From the IMG/VR virus record IMGVR_UViG_2695420412_000022, positions 1 to 11,394 of that record: a DNA stretch of 11,394 bases. The stretch is one strand, 5' to 3'. Below are positions 1 to 7,478 of this stretch, one piece after another. The translations under genes and the position numbers were made by a program. The stretch comes from a virus. Its lineage: Duplodnaviria > Heunggongvirae > Uroviricota > Caudoviricetes. Each line of letters starts with the position of its first letter. Position 1 is the first letter of the stretch. The notes below the pieces were generated by a model. The model did not search any database. It was not told where the DNA came from and was given only the letters and a program-made list of their open reading frames with translations.

Positions 1-171
1 TCAATAAATCCCATCATTGCGATCAACCTCATCCTTAACCATTGATGCGAGCAGTTCTTCCAGTTTCTGCGCTGACAGCTTTACCTGGTGATCTTCAGCA
101 TCTTCCCGGGCTATTGTGGTTCGCGCAGTGGCTGATTTTGCTGACATCACCACAGGGGGCAGACGGACCAT
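1..171 (-). CDS. hypothetical small protein (56 aa from the ATG at 171; alternative in-frame starts at 147 and 282)
   Basis: Open frame ending at a TGA at 3..1. The ATG at 171 is preceded by GGAGG about 10 nt upstream. No recognisable motif; it lies downstream of the short Tfa-like ORF on the same strand. Confidence 0.3.
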   Translation of the reverse strand: MVRLPPVVMSAKSATARTTIAREDAEDHQVKLSAQKLEELLASMVKDEVDRNDGIY

Positions 172-235
172 TGAACCATGGCCTCCGGAACAAATAAGGG
201 CAAAAATAACAACCACTATCGAAAGCTCACAAACT

Positions 236-451
236 AACCGCAGCACGTTCCTGTATACGACGTGTCTGCGGCATAATCCCAATGATTACTCCCTGACAGG
301 ATTTGCAGGCCACTCAATATCAGGTGCAGTTGATGTATCAACACGATTCAACAATACCCGATATTTATTCCATGCCTCCAGCAACGATCTTTCTTCCTCC
401 GTTGCGATTTCCAGATCTACAGCATCCTGCAGTGGCGCAATATACTCACTG
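236..451. repeat. direct repeat copy A (~215 bp, roughly 88% identical to 1286..1500): tfa 3' end plus ~50 bp downstream
   Basis: Base-by-base comparison with 1286..1500 shows the same sequence with scattered substitutions and a 1-nt indel. Homology stops abruptly at 451/1500. Confidence 0.85.
238..271. other. conserved stem-loop just downstream of the Tfa-like ORF stop (copy A)
   Basis: ccgcag-cacgt / acgtg-t-ctgcgg inverted repeat (6+5 bp stem with a 1-nt bulge, 11-nt loop). The equivalent hairpin is at 1288..1320. Confidence 0.4.
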
Positions 452-555
452 AATTCCTGGATGTAGAACTGTGTGGTGACGGTCTTCCAGCCATTCGGCT
501 CCTGCTGTATCGAAGCATACCAGGCTATTTCAATATCGCTATGCTGCGGCAGCAT
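286..555 (-). CDS. short tail fibre assembly (Tfa)-like protein, 89 aa; a Tfa C-terminal domain fused to a unique 35-aa N-terminus; possibly a remnant
   Basis: The C-terminal ~54 aa ([45 protein letters not shown]) are near-identical to the C-terminus of the full tfa at 1335..1919. It has its own ATG, an AAGGGG ribosome-binding site and an in-frame stop immediately upstream. Confidence 0.55.
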
Positions 556-582
556 TTAACCCCTTGTAATTCATCGCCATAA

Positions 583-611
583 TTGATTTAATTCACAAAT
601 AAAACTATAAC
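583..611 (+). promoter_or_regulatory. candidate sigma70-like promoter (TTGATT-N17-TATAAC) upstream of the methyltransferase ORF
   Basis: Hexamers read by eye in an AT-rich spacer. The TATAAC hexamer abuts the ATG at 612, so this fits better with the alternative start at 624. Weak evidence. Confidence 0.2.
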
Positions 612-1280
612 ATGGTGAAATTAATGAAAAAAAACACAGATGATGGGGCTAAAATTTACACACCACTTACCCTAAAGCTTTATGACTGGTGGGTTTTGGG
701 AGTATCAAATTGGCTTGCATGGGGATGTCCTACAAAGGAACACCTTCTTCCACACTTTCTGGAACATTTAGGTAACAACCATCTGGATATTGGTGTTGGA
801 ACTGGGTTTTACCTTACTCACGTACCTGAGAGTAGTCTGATATCTTTAATGGATTTGAACGAAGCTAGCCTGAACGCGGCATCTACAAGGGCTGGGGAAT
901 CAAAAATTAAACATAAAATTAGCCATGATGTTTTTGAACCTTATCCCGCGGCGTTACATGGTCAATTTGATTCCATTTCCATGTTTTACCTTCTTCACTG
1001 CCTGCCTGGAAATATAACTACAAAAAGCTGTGTAATACGCAATGCGGCGCAGGCCTTAACTGACGATGGAACTCTATACGGAGCCACAATTCTTGGCGAT
1101 GGAGTTGTGCACAATAGCTTCGGTCAAAAACTGATGCGCATTTACAATCAGAAAGGCATCTTTTCAAACACAAAAGATTCCGAAGAAGGCTTAACACATA
1201 TACTCTCAGAGCATTTCGAGAATGTTAAAACCAAGGTTCAAGGTACTGTAGTAATGTTTTCCGCTTCAGGGAAAAAATAG
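612..1280 (+). CDS. putative class I SAM-dependent methyltransferase (222 aa); phage cargo (moron) gene
   Basis: Rossmann-type motif I LDIGVGTGFY (aa 57-66), an acidic residue about 18 aa later (LISLMDLNE), and a motif II-like FDSISMFYLLHCLPG. The gene is visibly AT-rich compared with the flanking tail genes and runs opposite to them. The ATG at 624, preceded by GGTGA, may be the true start. Confidence 0.6.
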   Translation: MVKLMKKNTDDGAKIYTPLTLKLYDWWVLGVSNWLAWGCPTKEHLLPHFLEHLGNNHLDIGVGTGFYLTHVPESSLISLMDLNEASLNAASTRAGESKIKHKISHDVFEPYPAALHGQFDSISMFYLLHCLPGNITTKSCVIRNAAQALTDDGTLYGATILGDGVVHNSFGQKLMRIYNQKGIFSNTKDSEEGLTHILSEHFENVKTKVQGTVVMFSASGKK

Positions 1281-1285
1281 CATCC

Positions 1286-1500
1286 AACCGTAGCACGTTC
1301 TTGCTTAAGACGTGCTGCGGCATAATCCCAATGATTACTCCCTGACAGGGTTCGTAGGCCACTCAATATCAGGTGCAGTTGATGTATCAACACGGTTCAG
1401 CAACACCCGATACTTTTTCCAGGCTTCCAGCAATGAGGTTTCTTCCTCCGTTGCAATTTCCAGATCTGCAGCATCCTGAAGCGGCGCAATATGCTCACTG
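1286..1500. repeat. direct repeat copy B (~215 bp) matching 236..451: tfa 3' end plus ~50 bp downstream
   Basis: Same alignment as copy A. Begins 6 bp after the methyltransferase stop. Confidence 0.85.
1288..1320. other. conserved stem-loop just downstream of the tfa stop (copy B)
   Basis: ccgtagcacgt / acgtgctgcgg: an 11-bp stem with one G-U pair and an 11-nt loop. The stem is conserved with copy A while the loop sequence differs. Confidence 0.4.
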
Positions 1501-1919
1501 GCTACCTGCATCAGGTTGTTTTTTGTTTCTTCCGCCTCCCGGATCCGGAACAGTTTTTCTGCTTCCGTATCCTTCACCCAGGCTGTGCCGTTCCACTTCT
1601 GAAACTCCCCTTCCGGCGATAACCAGGTAACATTTTCCGGTAACGGACCGAGTTCAGAAATAAATAACTCGTCCCCTGACGCTACGTCATAAACCGTTTT
1701 ACCCCGATGGTCTTCAACGAGATGCCACGATGCCTCATCACTGTTGAAAACAGCCACAAAGCCAGCAGGAATATCTGGTGGTGCAATATCGGTACTGTTT
1801 GCTGGCAGACCTGTATGAGGCGGAATATATGCGTCACCTTCACCAATAAATTCATTAGTTCCGGCCAGCAGATTATAAATTTTTATGGTCCGTGCTTGTT
1901 CACTCATTCTGAATGCCAT
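1335..1919 (-). CDS. tfa: tail fibre assembly protein Tfa (194 aa)
   Basis: The full-length protein ([44 protein letters not shown]...[11 protein letters not shown]) closely matches lambda Tfa as I recall it. Its ATG overlaps the stf TAA stop (TAATG), consistent with translational coupling. Confidence 0.93.
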
Positions 1920-4900
1920 TATGCAAGCCTCACAATATAGTTAAATGCGATGTTTTTGACGGTGTTTTCCGCGTTACCCGCAGCGTTAACGGTGATGGTG
2001 TGTCCATGTGAACCAATCGCAACGGAGTGCGTATGCGCACCAATACCTACAGTATGTGCATGTGCGCCAGAACTTGCTGCAGTACCAGACAGCGAGTGGG
2101 TATGAGCACCTGCTGACTGTGTCTGAATACGTTGATAATACGATCTATAGGAAGAAGTCTCCGGGCTTACTTGATACTGTGAATTCTGGACATAAGTGAA
2201 CCCACCGCCATCATAAAATGCTAACGCAGAACCGCCGCCTCCTGGCCAACGAATACCATTACCATGAGTATGAACACCGGCAGACCCCGTAGAGCCACTC
2301 AGACTGTGCGTATGCGCCCCGGTGTTATTCGTGGATTTAGTGCCGTAATCAAACGACGATGTGGTTTTCGTCCCTAAATCCGTACTGGATGCGCTGGCGC
2401 TGTGGGTGTGCGATTTAATGCCGTCCTGTTCCTGAGACAATATGGCCCGACCACTGGCGGGCTTGCCCTTAATCATCCAGCCACGCATATCAGGGATCAC
2501 GCCTGACGGATAAGCAGCTGCAAGTTTCGGGTAAGCAGATTTGTCAAAAGTCTGCCCCTGCATCAGGGCATAACCAGACGGAACGGTATCTGATGGCCAC
2601 GGGATTGGTGCGCCGACTGGGTAGCTTTCTGGTGGAAGATTTTTCGAGGTATAAACTTCTGCCCAGTCTTCCTCAAAACCATAACCGTCTCTTGAAGAAC
2701 GGTAGAACAGACCACCATTTCTGTAATGCGCCTTCATCTGCAAGGTCCGGCAACTTCCGACTCCGGTATAGAAGTTAACCAGAATATAGCTGTCGCCAGA
2801 GCGAGTGACATTGTAAGCGCCTGATTCGGCATTCCAGGGAACGCCCCCATCCGCATCGGCATACGTATCCGTTGCTCTTCTGGCAAAAGCAGCAACATGC
2901 GCAGCGGTTAAAGTGATATCAGTAGAACCATCAAACGAAACACCAGATATTTTTATTGCTGTCTGAAGTTTCGTAGCTGTATCAGAATTTCCCTTAATCC
3001 CCTTAGGAGAATTAAGTGGTGTATTGATCGTCACTTCACCTGTTGCGTTATTTACTGCAAATGGTCGAAGACCGTTCCAGCCACCGTACTGGTCGCCTTT
3101 ATCAGTCATGAGCAAGTAAGTATTTGCTCCATCATTTCGCCATATGACACCGTAATCACCTGCAATCATCCTTAACGCGTTCTGACTACGGACAATAACT
3201 TCATCATTAGCGTAAATCTTATTCCCGCTAATGTCTGACTTACTCAAAACAGGATACGAACTATAAAATCCATTACCTTGTTTAAAATCTAAAATTAAAT
3301 TTACCGCAACTGATNNNNNNNNNNTCCAGCCGCGCATATCTGGAATAACACCTGAAGGATAGGCAATAGCCAGTTTCGGATATGCTGCCTTATCAAACGT
3401 CTGCCCCTGCATGATTGCATAACCTGCAGGTGGTGTATCTGATGGCCACGGCAGCGGAACACCTGGCGGAAACGCTTCAATATTTGCCGAGCCGTCAAAT
3501 TTTACGCCGTTAATTGTCCTTGCAGTTTGCAATTTGGTTGCTGTGCTTGCATTACCCGATAAAGATCCAGTGATACCACCACTCGCGTTTAATTTAGTTG
3601 CAATTGTAACATTGCCAGTATGGTTACTAATTATAAACGGCCTTAAGCTATTGTGCGTACCAAGACTGTTACCCGAATCTGTCAACATAAAATATGTGTT
3701 TGATCCATCATTTCGGATAAAGAATCCATAGTTGCCATAGGCAATACGCAGACCATTTGCTGACCTTGAAATAACCTCACCAGCAGCAGTTAAACCACCT
3801 GAAAGAGTCCCTCCAGTTAATGCCAATGCCCCAATATTTGAAGGGGTCAATGTGATATTTGCACTACCATCAAATGACACACCGTTAATCGTTCTGGCTG
3901 CCTGAAGTTTCGTGGCGGTCGCAGCATTACCTGTAGTGTTTTGATTACCGGTAGCGTTGACTCCAGGCAAGTTGATATCTGCCGATCCATCAAATGCCAC
4001 GCCCCCAATCTTACGTGCTGTCTTGATCTTGGTCGCAGTATCTGCGTTTCCGGTCAAATTACCAGTAACACTACCACCAACTTTTAGTCCATTACCGATG
4101 GACACCAACCCTGATCTTAAGTTTATAGAGAATGGTCTTAATGAACCGATGTCTCCATTTTCCCCCTCCCCTTCATTAGTCGGAATAAGATGAAGATGAT
4201 CTTCGGAACGCCTAAAAATAAGGCCAAAGGCTTGGTTGAATATTCGAAGAGCATTTATCGTGCTGATTTTTAACTGCCCTCCCATTGTGTCGCCAGTTTT
4301 TTGAACTGAACTATCTTTAACAGTTTTAACTGCCTTTGGCGTTGCCGCCAGCTTTTCACTGGTGCTGTTTGTTGCACTGCTGAGCTGTACTATCCCCTTT
4401 TTCGTCGTGCTCGCATCCTCCAGCGCTACGGCGGATGCAATATCCTCAGCCCGTTTTGCTGCTGTCTCGGCGCGCGTTGCCGCGGATTCAGCAGCAACTT
4501 TGCTCTGAGATGCAGCCGTCGCACTGCCTGCCGCCTCTGATGCTTTCGTTGTTGCTGTCGTGGCACTACCTTTCGCTGCTGACGCTTGTCTGGTCGCCTC
4601 ATCTTTTGAAGCAGACGCAGATGATGCCGATGACGCCGCTGAACTGGCTGACGATGCGGCTGCCGCCTTAGAGGAAGCAGCATTGTCTGCTGAAGTCTTT
4701 GCATTTGTTTCAGAGGTTTTTGCTGCAGAAGCAGACCTCGCTGCTGCAGTGGCTTGCTCAGTGGCTTTGCCAGCCTTCGTTGTGGCTGTTGAAGCGGATG
4801 ATGCGGCGCTTTCTGCCGATTTTCCGGCGGCGGTGGCACTGGCTGAGGCCTGCCCGGCACTTGTTGACGCGGCACTGGCAGATAATGCAGCCGCTGTTTT

Positions 4901-5794
4901 TGAACCTGCCGCAGCTGAGGCGCTCTGTCCCGCTGCTGTTTCAGAAGACTTAGCGTTCGTCTCGGACGTTTTTGCCGCCTTCGCGGAATTTCCTGCCGCC
5001 GTTGCCGAGGAAGCTGCACTACTGGCACTTGATGATGCATTCGTTTCTGAAGATTTCGCTGCCTCTTTTGAGGCCGCCGCACCCCGTGCCGAGGTGGCAG
5101 CTTCTGACGCCTTCGTGGTCGCTGTGGATGCAGAAGTGGCTGCCGATTTTTGTGATGCTGCGGCATTCGTTTCTGACGTTTTCGCGGCACTGGCGCTGGT
5201 AGCTGCCGCGCTTTTTGATGACTCTGCAGCAGCAGCACTTTTTGCTGCTTCACGGGCCTTTGTCGATGCCGTTCCTGCGCTGGAAGACGCTGACTGAGCC
5301 GAGGACGCGGCCTGTCCGGCTGACGTGTTGGCGGCACGTGCTGAGGCTGCAGCATCGGTTGCATGAGTTGCCGCCTCGCTGGCTGATGCACTGGCATCGC
5401 TGGCTGATTTTTTCGCGGCTGCCGTATTCTGTGCAACCGCGGAGGCGTTACGTGACACCTCTTCCACCATCTGCTCAAAGCGGCGCAGTGCCTCCGGTCG
5501 GACATCATCCTCCGTCATGGCACCGAGAAAATCATTCAGCGTACCTGGTCTGGAACCTTCATAGACGGTAATGGTCCCGGCATGTGAAGGCGGAAAACCT
5601 TCAACCAGCAGGGTGACGCTGTACTGACCATGCTCAACATCCATGCTGTAACGTCCGGCTTCATCCGGATTTTCAGAGGCCACCGTGTTCACCACCACCG
5701 TGCTGCTGGTTCGTCTGGCCTTCAGCACAATGGTGCAGTTCTGTACTGATTTTCCTGTGCCATCTTTAAGCACGCCAGAAATTTTTACTGTCAT
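1919..5794 (-). CDS. stf: side tail fibre protein Stf, long form (1291 aa)
   Basis: The N-terminal ~115 aa ([26 protein letters not shown]...) resemble lambda Stf. They are followed by a long Ala/Ser/Thr-rich tract with recurring KTSETNA motifs, four ~28-aa [22 protein letters not shown] repeats, two copies of a PWPSD...GQTFDK...YPKL...PDMRGW module, and a His-rich HxH C-terminus (GAHTHS, GAHAHT, GSHGHT). The frame reads through the 10-N gap. Confidence 0.9.
3315..3324. other. assembly gap (10 N) inside stf
   Basis: A run of n in the sequence, directly beside the first PDMRGW module. Confidence 0.99.
4400..5446 (-). repeat. low-complexity Ala/Ser/Thr-rich coding repeat region of stf (approximate bounds)
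   Basis: The translation is dominated by A, S, T and K with recurring SETNA motifs. GCN-rich codons produce long spurious ORFs in other frames on both strands. Confidence 0.7.
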
Positions 5795-5808
5795 ACTTTT
5801 CCACCAAT

Positions 5809-5840
5809 AAAAAAAGCCCGCAGCAGTGACGCCACGGGCT
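5809..5840 (-). terminator. candidate intrinsic terminator after lom copy 2 (weak)
   Basis: On the minus strand: a GCCCG...CGGGC stem with a 14-nt loop followed by a 7-T run, just upstream of the stf ribosome-binding site and ATG. Confidence 0.35.
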
Positions 5841-5945
5841 TCAGGACAGTGTAACTTTACGTTTCCTCAAACGCAGTTCACCCCATAAGGTGGATGAACC
5901 TGCGTATCATAACAATATTTACAGAAGATAAATCGGCGTCTGTTG

Positions 5946-6545
5946 TCAGAAACGGTATCCGATACCAACAATAAATGCATCCGTTCGCCAGTCGCCACTA
6001 CCGGAACCTTCATAAGCAAGGTCAATGGTCACGGATTCGGTCGGATTAAACTGCACGCCAGCCCCCCACGCCAGAGACGTGTTGCTGTGGCGACCGTCAT
6101 CACTTCCGGTCAGCACGTCGTGCGTTTTCCCCTTGTTGTCAATTACGCGGAGATAATCCCCGGAGAAAGTCGACACACGGCTGTAAGCCACACCCACCAT
6201 CGCATACGCGCTGAACCATTCATTCACGCGTACAGACGGCCCCGCCATCACGCTGAACCAGCGGTTACGCACGGAATCTTCATGCCAGCGGGTATCGCTG
6301 TAGCGCGTTTTTTGCTCATCCTCAGCATTGGCATAACTGAAGGACGTAATCAGCCCCAGCGCGTCCGTAAACTCATAACGGTATTTCACGTTAATCCCGT
6401 TCAGATCATCACTACCGGGAACGTTCGTCGAGGCATGGAGATACCCCGCGCTCAGCGTGGACTGATGTTCTGCTGCACTCGCTGGCGTAGCAGCGGCGAC
6501 CTGCCAGACTACTGCGGACAAAATAACAGCACATAATTTACGCAT
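5946..6545 (-). CDS. lom: Lom/Ail-family outer membrane protein, divergent copy (199 aa)
   Basis: Full-length beta-barrel protein with a signal peptide and the conserved Lom core (GINVKYRYEFTD, RWHEDSVRNRWFSVMAGPSVRVNE, GAGVQFNPTESV). A GAGG ribosome-binding site precedes the ATG. It differs from copy 1 mainly in the signal peptide and the SYANAEDEQKT segment. Confidence 0.9.
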   Translation of the reverse strand: MRKLCAVILSAVVWQVAAATPASAAEHQSTLSAGYLHASTNVPGSDDLNGINVKYRYEFTDALGLITSFSYANAEDEQKTRYSDTRWHEDSVRNRWFSVMAGPSVRVNEWFSAYAMVGVAYSRVSTFSGDYLRVIDNKGKTHDVLTGSDDGRHSNTSLAWGAGVQFNPTESVTIDLAYEGSGSGDWRTDAFIVGIGYRF

Positions 6546-6569
6546 AATTACCTCTCGCTTTTCTGCAAT

Positions 6570-6593
6570 AAAAAAGGCGCCATTTCTGGCGCC
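6570..6593 (-). terminator. candidate intrinsic terminator between the J 3' fragment and lom copy 2
   Basis: Minus strand GGCGCC-AGAAAT-GGCGCC hairpin followed by TTTTTT. Confidence 0.45.
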
Positions 6594-6612
6594 CGTATCT
6601 GGGTTATAAAAT

Positions 6613-7144
6613 TCAGCTAATCGTGATGCCTGCAGTGGCTTTCTTCATCACCACAACCAGCAAATCGCTGATACTTGCTGTGGGATACCAGTTATTTACC
6701 AGCCATGCTGACACCGAAAACTCCAGTGTCATGTGACCGTGACCGGCAGGCATATCAATAACACCACTGTAAATCAACGTATTATCCAGCGCGGTACGGT
6801 TATAAATTTCAGCACCGTTTTTCCGTACTATCAGGCGGCATGACGAATAAATATCGTTATTCTCCCGCTCATGTTTAGCGCCGCTGAATGCCACCGCCGG
6901 AATAACAATCTGCCGGTCAAACGGCTGATCGTCATAAACCCTGACGGTGATGGTCCCTGATGGCCACCGTTCCGGTGCACGGGAGTCCCGGGGGAAAGCT
7001 TTGCCCACTGTTTTAACGAGATCGCCTTCAATCTGGTTGGCGGACAATTTTCCCAGAACCCGACAGTTCTCGTTAATCGTGACGTTGTTGAGCGTCCCGG
7101 AGTTCGCATTCACGTTACCGCTGATATCGGCATTTTTCGCCGTC
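6613..7144 (-). pseudogene. J C-terminal fragment (last ~177 codons), duplicated, with no start codon of its own
   Basis: Nucleotide sequence identical to the J 3' end at 8146..8677. The upstream side is joined at 7145 (an N) to a stf 5' fragment in a different frame. Confidence 0.8.
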
Positions 7145-7145
7145 N

Positions 7146-7414
7146 AGAAAATCATTCAGCGTACCGGGTCGGGAATCTTCATACACGGTGATGGTCCCGG
7201 CATGTGACGGCGGGAATCCTTCCACCAACAGAATAACGCTGTACTGACCGTACTCAACGTCCATGCTGTAACGCCCGGCTTCATCCGGATTTTCTGAGGC
7301 CAGCGTGTTCACCACCACCGTGGTGCTGTTACGTTTTGCTTTCAGCTGGATTGTGCAGTTCTGTACCGGTTTTCCTGTGCCGTCTTTCAGTACACCTGAA
7401 ATCTTTACTGCCAT
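7146..7414 (-). pseudogene. stf 5' fragment (codons 1-89, [26 protein letters not shown]...LNDF), truncated at the joint with the J fragment
   Basis: About 85-88% identical to the 5' end of the full stf and closer to lambda Stf as recalled. The frame runs into J-derived sequence out of frame and stops at 7115. Confidence 0.8.
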
Positions 7415-7425
7415 ATTCACCCCAC

Positions 7426-7452
7426 AAAAAAGCCCGCCTGAACCGGCGGGCT
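7426..7452 (-). terminator. candidate intrinsic terminator after lom copy 1
   Basis: Minus strand AGCCCGCC-GGTTCA-GGCGGGCT hairpin (8-bp GC-rich stem) followed by TTTTTT. Confidence 0.55.
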
Positions 7453-7478
7453 GTCATAACACTGTGTTACCTGGCTAA

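Follow-up and report, generated by a model that had tools for sequence, protein, structure and literature searches.

Mosaic tail-fibre ends, morons and repeat-mediated loss of sequence are textbook features of phage genomes, a moron being, in the definition of Hendrix and colleagues, an independent transcription unit set between phage genes. Tail-fibre and chaperone modules are also said to be exchanged horizontally among unrelated phages, including P2, Mu, P1 and lambda, as was reportedly described by Haggard-Ljungquist in 1992 and Sandmeier in 1994. In the cryptic prophage DLP12 of Escherichia coli K-12, three genes of this kind stand side by side, namely tfaD (b0561), ybcY (b0562, a pseudogene on the opposite strand) and tfaX (b0563). 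Here we analyse a stretch of 11,394 nucleotides (nt) of Caudoviricetes DNA (IMG/VR record IMGVR_UViG_2695420412_000022, positions 1 to 11,394; hereafter the window), in which a methyltransferase gene of the ybcY type lies between two direct repeats of the 3' end of the tail fibre assembly gene tfa.

The name YbcY was met in the annotation of the methyltransferase in phage PhiR68_2 and led to K-12, where window positions 309-1773 align with 581,659-583,121 of NC_000913 at 96.9% identity, with gene order and strands alike. In both loci tfa and tfaX share one strand and the methyltransferase between them occupies the other, and in K-12, too, there is a direct repeat between the 3' ends of tfaD and tfaX. 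The two differ in that ybcY is a pseudogene in K-12, and tfaX there has a premature stop and differs over its last ~25 codons, whereas here ybcY is intact and tfaX has a complete 3' end followed by its hairpin. They differ also in their surroundings, since the K-12 trio is followed by appY-ompT and the present one by a remnant of a DUF4376-domain gene and by ompW' beside yciE and the trp operon. Judged from this colinearity, the window contains the DLP12 tfaD-ybcY-tfaX module, intact, in a different prophage, a lambdoid one integrated in ompW. The arrangement was already known, being annotated in the K-12 reference and found in most E. coli strains; the literature on ybcY and tfaX that we found mentions them only incidentally and does not explicitly describe the repeat. 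The likely explanation, and the one we favour with some confidence, is that diverged old tfa alleles flank the moron ybcY and that the boxes they have in common serve as substrates of homologous recombination for loss or movement of the cassette.

The two copies of the repeat, copy A (236-462) and copy B (1286-1511), lie in direct orientation and agree at 199 of 227 positions (87.7%) in a global alignment, with a single indel at T265. A repeat scan returned them in two registers one base apart (266-462 against 1315-1511 at 89%, and 236-264 against 1286-1314 at 83%), and blastn recovered 236-451 and 1286-1500 at 88.9-89.4%, exactly the coordinates of the preliminary description of this DNA, which is thus borne out in giving a direct repeat of the tfa 3' end at ~88% identity. 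A match of 227 nt at 88% is far beyond chance, and the recurrence of the arrangement in more than 900 complete genomes rules out an artefact of assembly. Copy B comprises the tfa stop codon (1335-1337), the last 54-58 codons of the gene and 49 nt downstream. The left edge of the repeat (236/1286) is sharp, but the right edge, which had been described as sharp, is not quite so, with identity decaying across 451-462 and 1500-1511, and similarity to Tfa proteins begins at residue 27 of an 89-aa open reading frame (ORF), at about window position 477.

In Tfa proteins the N-terminal domain, which binds the fibre, is variable, and the helical C-terminal domain is conserved (North et al. 2019, as summarised in PMC9608196). 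The full-length tfa of the window covers positions 1-130 of the 131 in the Caudo_TAP profile (PF02413, E=1.9e-44), and the 89-codon ORF lacks the fibre-binding N-terminal part, matching positions 75-130 only. Because of this profile coverage and this domain architecture, the repeat is identified as the conserved C-terminal domain of Tfa together with a 3' stem-loop. What had been taken for a recombination joint, the inner end of the homology, is instead the point at which the variable N-terminal domain of Tfa gives way to the conserved C-terminal one. Position 214, at which homology to other prophages begins, is the left boundary of the tfa module. A transposable element with a target-site duplication was not recognised, the repeat being 227 nt long at 87.7% identity and a profile search finding no transposase. 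The preliminary description had also considered that the repeat might be a common standalone element occurring without cassette-free alleles. Very common it is, tfa 3' ends matching in ~5200 of the 5426 complete E. coli genomes of our collection (median, 3 sites in a genome), but cassette-free (empty) alleles exist, as set out below.

Copy A belongs to a gene with a 5' part of its own. Its first ~26 codons occur solely alongside the cassette, lambda-type Tfa proteins aligning from residue 27. A tblastn search of 50,697 phage records returned no full-length parent tfa carrying the tfaX 5' part, and no longer Tfa containing tfaX residues 1-26 was present among 5.8 billion proteins; all relatives begin at an identical MLPQHSD. 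The family (PHROG 2341, 88 aa) has no assigned function, the allele of phage ev243 is cut at 330, and the unique part differs from the allele of a P2-like prophage by 2 synonymous and 5 non-synonymous codon changes. We conclude that tfaX is probably a non-functional remnant.

Both copies end in a stem-loop. Stem-loop B (1288-1320) has 11 pairs and, read on the + strand, where it follows the methyltransferase stop, folds at -23 kcal/mol (z = -4.1). Neither it nor stem-loop A has a U-run, and an intrinsic-terminator scan called neither. At pair 244:264 both copies have C-G, and lambda and a tfaR-type allele have A-T, a compensatory change which suggests that the stem-loop structure itself is under selection despite the missing U-run. 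The notion that hairpin B is specific to ybcY-linked tfa was rejected, as a prophage near yecD (locus L031 of our set) carries it without ybcY.

Empty sites were sought with a synthetic "deleted" sequence and then with a shorter junction query that occupied alleles cannot span. The synthetic sequence matched unbroken in a few genomes, and the junction query found exactly 20 complete genomes in which tfa directly adjoins the sequence left of 236, so that the alleles foreseen in the preliminary description do occur. Window segment 1-235 is present in 957 genomes, of which these 20 make up ~2%. Thirteen of the 20 were scored at the 28 positions that separate copies A and B. The empty allele of EFF60 is copy-A-like through 265 and copy-B-like from 301, without private differences, placing the switch within 266-300, and it encodes Tfa WP_000885577.1, the same protein as occupied alleles do. 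It is a clean A/B chimera, as recombination between the repeats predicts, and its copy-B haplotype is otherwise linked to hairpin B (in locus L001, in ST95 and in L031). A trace of exchange between the two copies was seen also in O104:H4 2011C-3493, whose copy B has copy-A bases at three adjacent diagnostic sites (301-306); this looks like a short patch of gene conversion between the repeats.

Several observations weigh against the explanation favoured here. The other 12 empty alleles examined are copy-A-like through 306 and copy-B-like from 346, their states at 301-462 recur in ordinary tfaR-type and K-12 tfaD alleles, their scattered copy-A states recur in P2-like tfa as well, and tfaR-type alleles share the copy-A states at 301-306. 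These 12 of 13 are compatible with deletion without being diagnostic of it, and they could be modules that were never occupied or that were replaced. Even the EFF60 allele could stem from exchange with a module like that of L031, which encodes identical Tfa and Stf proteins and has hairpin B and no ybcY, rather than from deletion within a single molecule; under either route the crossover lies inside the tfa box. No isogenic or ancestor-descendant pair of occupied and empty strains was found, and the candidates Evo1 (empty) and JCC-EE 7 (occupied), submitted in one batch, were discarded as such a pair, their prophages being unrelated at the locus. The cassette junctions of ev243 (330) and Ayreon (585|1245) are abrupt and illegitimate, showing that homologous recombination is not the sole process at work. 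Lastly, the 89-codon ORF of tfaX is open in two alleles that are 83% identical, which leaves room for a function. A further candidate interpretation, in which the empty alleles were mosaics with several switches made by conversion, was dropped, as the same copy-A states are ordinary polymorphisms of K-12 tfaD, of P2-like and tfaR-type tfa, and of copy A in O104 and ST95.

Alternatively, the repeats may be passive and mediate neither gain nor loss. On a single occasion a tfa-ybcY segment would have been joined illegitimately into the middle of another tfa to give the occupied form, and the empty alleles would either never have been occupied or have received a whole new stf-tfa module. That 12 of the 13 examined empty alleles have the tfa haplotypes of ordinary tfa genes, in diverse prophage backgrounds and beside varied genes for the side tail fibre (stf), speaks for such a history, as do the one empty allele at another attachment site (ompN/uspF) and several cassette borders that are clearly illegitimate. 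Yet in EFF60 hairpin A is joined to the exact copy-B haplotype inside a 35-nt block with nothing else changed, copy B of O104:H4 bears what looks like a patch of conversion between the copies, and divergence of the cassette core is much lower than that of its flanks in all contexts. We therefore regard passive repeats as possible but unlikely.

The difference between core and flanks is a further line of evidence for recombination in the tfa boxes. Across all contexts compared (five phage contexts) the core (556-1280) is 98.2-99.6% identical, and the boxes with their hairpins are 77-92% identical in the P2-like context, copy A of DLP12 standing at 91.5%. Against the P2-like prophage, synonymous changes affect 3 of 223 codons of the methyltransferase and 25 of 136 codons in the N-terminal part of tfa. 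Because identity is high in the core and low in the flanks, the core has been exchanged more recently than the flanks diverged, and its low divergence points to crossovers in the flanking tfa homology. Besides DLP12, the contexts are isolated lambdoid phages with differing neighbours and a P2-like prophage, and they differ in how much of the locus they retain (Table 1). In phages Turner (its positions 5859-7617) and PhiR68_2 (its positions 3945-5703) the additional ~1.7 kb has been inserted exactly between window 1357, in the tfa stop region, and stem-loop B (1320), and therefore stem-loop B stays with ybcY and not with tfa. As a separate observation, the deletion in Ayreon (4002-4350), which has a 4-nt overlap at 585|1245, leaves both flanks in place, and no complete tfa comes after the side tail fibre gene.

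The same figures bear on the proposal, made in the preliminary description, that the cassette entered a single tfa and left a partial duplication of its 3' end. Such an insertion would give copies in direct orientation and of similar extent, as observed, but a duplication of ~215 bp would be identical at the time of insertion, and the copies are now 12% apart, against only 0.4-1.8% for the intervening sequence across contexts as distant as lambdoid and P2-like prophages. Copies A and B, moreover, stay distinguishable from each other in DLP12 and in the P2-like prophage, and copy A runs into a non-tfa 5' part that is conserved with the cassette everywhere, lying in a separate and old tfaX remnant. 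These data contradict a literal duplication, which is very improbable.

Recombination in the tfa boxes thus best accounts for the spread of the core and for one loss or more, and it could have acted as follows. The tfa-ybcY-tfaX unit is old, two diverged tfa alleles having come to stand next to each other long ago, and the repeat represents two versions of a domain found in almost every Tfa protein rather than the scar of an arriving cassette. Being in direct orientation and sharing identical blocks of 35 and 39 nt, the boxes can recombine homologously. A crossover between the two, or with the tfa of another prophage, would remove ybcY and the 5' part of tfaX and leave a single chimeric tfa, and the same homology would have allowed the conserved ybcY core to move between tfa backgrounds. 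It is the direction of each event (loss or gain) and the recombination pathway acting that we infer. The earlier suggestion that the cassette travelled by recombination within the tfa 3' box is in this respect upheld by the EFF60 chimera and by a core of 98-99.6% identity between boxes of 77-92%, and left without a verdict by 12 of the 13 empty alleles.

A bolder version of the same idea, which we think distinctly doubtful, is that the tfa C-terminal box with its stem-loop is a portable homology arm. Here tfaX would be kept as the second arm, and a ybcY circle with a hybrid box, set free by recombination of one arm with the other, could re-enter any tfa by a single crossover. If true, this would explain why a near-invariant core is found behind different fibre modules, lambdoid and P2-like, and in 71% of E. 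coli genomes, and it would amount to a homology-driven cassette system without a dedicated recombinase.

The methyltransferase itself is 99.0% identical to K-12 ybcY and was found in 3832 of the 5426 genomes (71%), always at 95% identity or above. Its start is probably ATG 624 rather than 612, as the PHROG 2132 profile aligns from residue 5, GGTGA stands 6 nt upstream of 624 and a -10 element TATAAC ends at 606. PHROG 2132 is an established phage protein family with no assigned function; searches for a substrate or function gave sub-threshold matches only with NCBIfam, nothing with PADLOC and nothing in a PDB sequence search. For K-12, a study by genomic systematic evolution of ligands by exponential enrichment lists binding of RNA polymerase holoenzyme, divergent promoters and an H-NS site in the spacer between ybcY and tfaX (PMC3946193). 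The ybcY promoter listed for K-12 (TTGATT-17-TATAAC; PMC3946193) is found at window 578-606, and a promoter scan added TTAACC-16-CATAAT at 556-583, so ybcY apparently has its own promoter. Segment 463-611, in which these lie, always accompanies the methyltransferase. With a GC content of 40.7% against 47-50% in its flanks, its position on the opposite strand, its promoter-like elements and its presence/absence polymorphism among similar prophages, ybcY is a typical phage moron. Unlike other morons, it is always flanked on one side by a piece of a structural-gene family (tfaX), and hence embedded in homology to its insertion neighbourhood. On the - strand at 1225-1362, RefSeq lists a hypothetical protein of 45 aa (WP_001309429.1) that runs across the 3' end of the methyltransferase gene, stem-loop B and the stop codon of tfa; this annotation is probably spurious.

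The arrangement could also be a relic of an invertible tail-fibre segment of the Din family (Pin/Gin/Cin), the tfa fragments deriving from alternative fibre/chaperone sets. For this one may cite the Pin-type invertase gene between tfa and hairpin B in Turner and PhiR68_2 and a hix-like core, AAACCAAGGTT, at 1228-1238. The repeats, however, are direct and not inverted, the window has no invertase ORF, and the gene between the repeats is a methyltransferase and not part of a fibre. As an invertase-site relic AAACCAAGGTT was rejected, its match being at chance level: each locus has just one copy, and with one mismatch allowed at least one match turned up in 49 of 200 shuffled sequences. The data contradict this origin, which we consider extremely improbable.

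The window covers the right-hand end of a lambdoid prophage that has integrated in ompW. The prophage ends in the DUF4376 remnant, beyond which, outside the window, stands what is left of the ompW' attachment site; the reading frame of the DUF4376 gene extends left of the window in related genomes, and a stop-free version of it adjoins the empty tfa at ompN/uspF. Towards the other end, a [J C-terminal fragment + lom] block is present as a second, diverged direct copy (5526-6630 and 7146-8163, 84-91% identical), and the single block of L001 aligns to both. There are lom genes at 5946-6545 and 7479-8078 and a 180-aa ORF at 6613-7155 with an Ig_GpJ_C domain only, all on the - strand. Compared with the allele of F5505-C1, to which it is otherwise 99% identical, the stf gene is longer by 849 nt (283 codons), and the extra piece is bounded by a 127-nt repeat (2476-2602 and 3325-3451, 78% identical), which suggests a length polymorphism of the fibre shaft through recombination between internal repeats. 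No complete E. coli genome of the collection contains the whole window in one piece, the best reaching 90% coverage in 3 pieces.

Table 1 Features of the window and contexts in which the cassette was found (positions are those of the window)
Feature or context	Position	Strand	Basis or remarks
DUF4376-domain gene remnant (pseudogene without N-terminus); TGA at 1-3 is an internal stop	1-189	-	PGAP annotation in L001; Pfam DUF4376 E=1.9e-4, below gathering score
22-nt flank CACTATCGAAAGCTCAC..., moving with tfa modules of other prophages	214-235		Homology of other prophages and of a P2-like prophage starts at 214
Repeat copy A: tfaX 3' end (codons of the conserved Tfa C-terminal domain), stop codon, stem-loop	236-462	-	Caudo_TAP profile positions 75-130 only
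Stem-loop A: 11 pairs, one bulged T, 14 nt past the tfaX stop	238-271	-	Fold -25.9 kcal/mol, z = -2.7
35-nt block in which copies A and B are identical	266-300		Contains the A-to-B switch of EFF60
tfaX-like 89-codon ORF: Tfa C-terminal domain behind ~26 unrelated codons	286-555	-	Pfam Caudo_TAP; PHROG 2341
39-nt block, the longest in which copies A and B are identical	307-345		Apparent switch interval of the 12 other examined empty alleles
tfaX-specific 5' part and divergent promoter region of tfaX and methyltransferase	463-611		99-100% identity in 14 phage genomes
ybcY-type class I S-adenosylmethionine-dependent methyltransferase, 222 aa	612-1280	+	Pfam Methyltransf_12/23/25/11; PHROG 2132
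Repeat copy B: 3' end of functional tfa and stem-loop B	1286-1511	-	Repeat scan, alignment, fold
tfa, tail fibre assembly gene of lambda type and full length (194 aa); orthologue of K-12 tfaD	1335-1919	-	Pfam, PHROG 105, colinearity with K-12 tfaD
stf, side tail fibre gene, 1291 aa, partner of tfa	1919-5794	-	Pfam phage_tail_N, Gp34_trimer, Collar
Tail-tip gene J	8146-11361	-	
Phages ev243 and 2G7b	331-1455 retained		Different fibre module; cassette without a complete tfa at its side; junction abrupt at 330
Phage Turner	331-1320 retained		~1.7 kb (Pin-type invertase, other small ORFs) between hairpin B and tfa
Phage PhiR68_2	309-1320 retained		~1.7 kb as in Turner, including a ynaE-family gene
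Phage Ayreon	469-585 joined to 1245-1480		ybcY gone by imprecise deletion
P2-like prophage beside smpB	214-2056 colinear		92.9% identity; stf 3' end through 22 nt past hairpin A

Beyond a tidy annotation the importance of these findings is small. They explain why a "second, partial tail fiber assembly protein" is so frequently annotated beside a methyltransferase in E. coli prophages, and they show the ybcY-type methyltransferase, which has no known function, to be a prophage cargo gene that is intact, extremely widespread and only rarely represented by natural knock-out alleles. The empty alleles and the K-12 pseudogene are ready comparators for finding the role of ybcY, and the locus offers a small, clean example of how a domain common to all Tfa proteins gives homology for the shuffling of cargo near host-range genes.

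Set beside the remaining described systems, the locus shares its foundations with lambda, whose stf-tfa region (orf-401/orf-314, orf-194) has a tfa of the same type and length (194 aa) and a conserved stem-loop after the stop codon; in lambda, however, tfa is followed by ea47, and neither ybcY nor a second tfa fragment is present. The lambdoid cargo loci of enterohaemorrhagic E. coli O157:H7 and O111:H8 share the prophage end (window 1-234), but past 234/235 they carry transposase/IS1 remnants and an effector kinase of the OspG/NleH type instead of tfaX-ybcY-tfa, with other junctions and with insertion sequence elements, not tfa homology, as flanks. Theirs is a third allele, and the position is a general cargo site. 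A further parallel is the exchange of fibre modules among unrelated phages, since a block running from the stf 3' end through tfa, ybcY and tfaX to the hairpin is common to a lambdoid and a P2-like prophage; the difference is that here a gene which is not part of the fibre rides inside the exchanged block.

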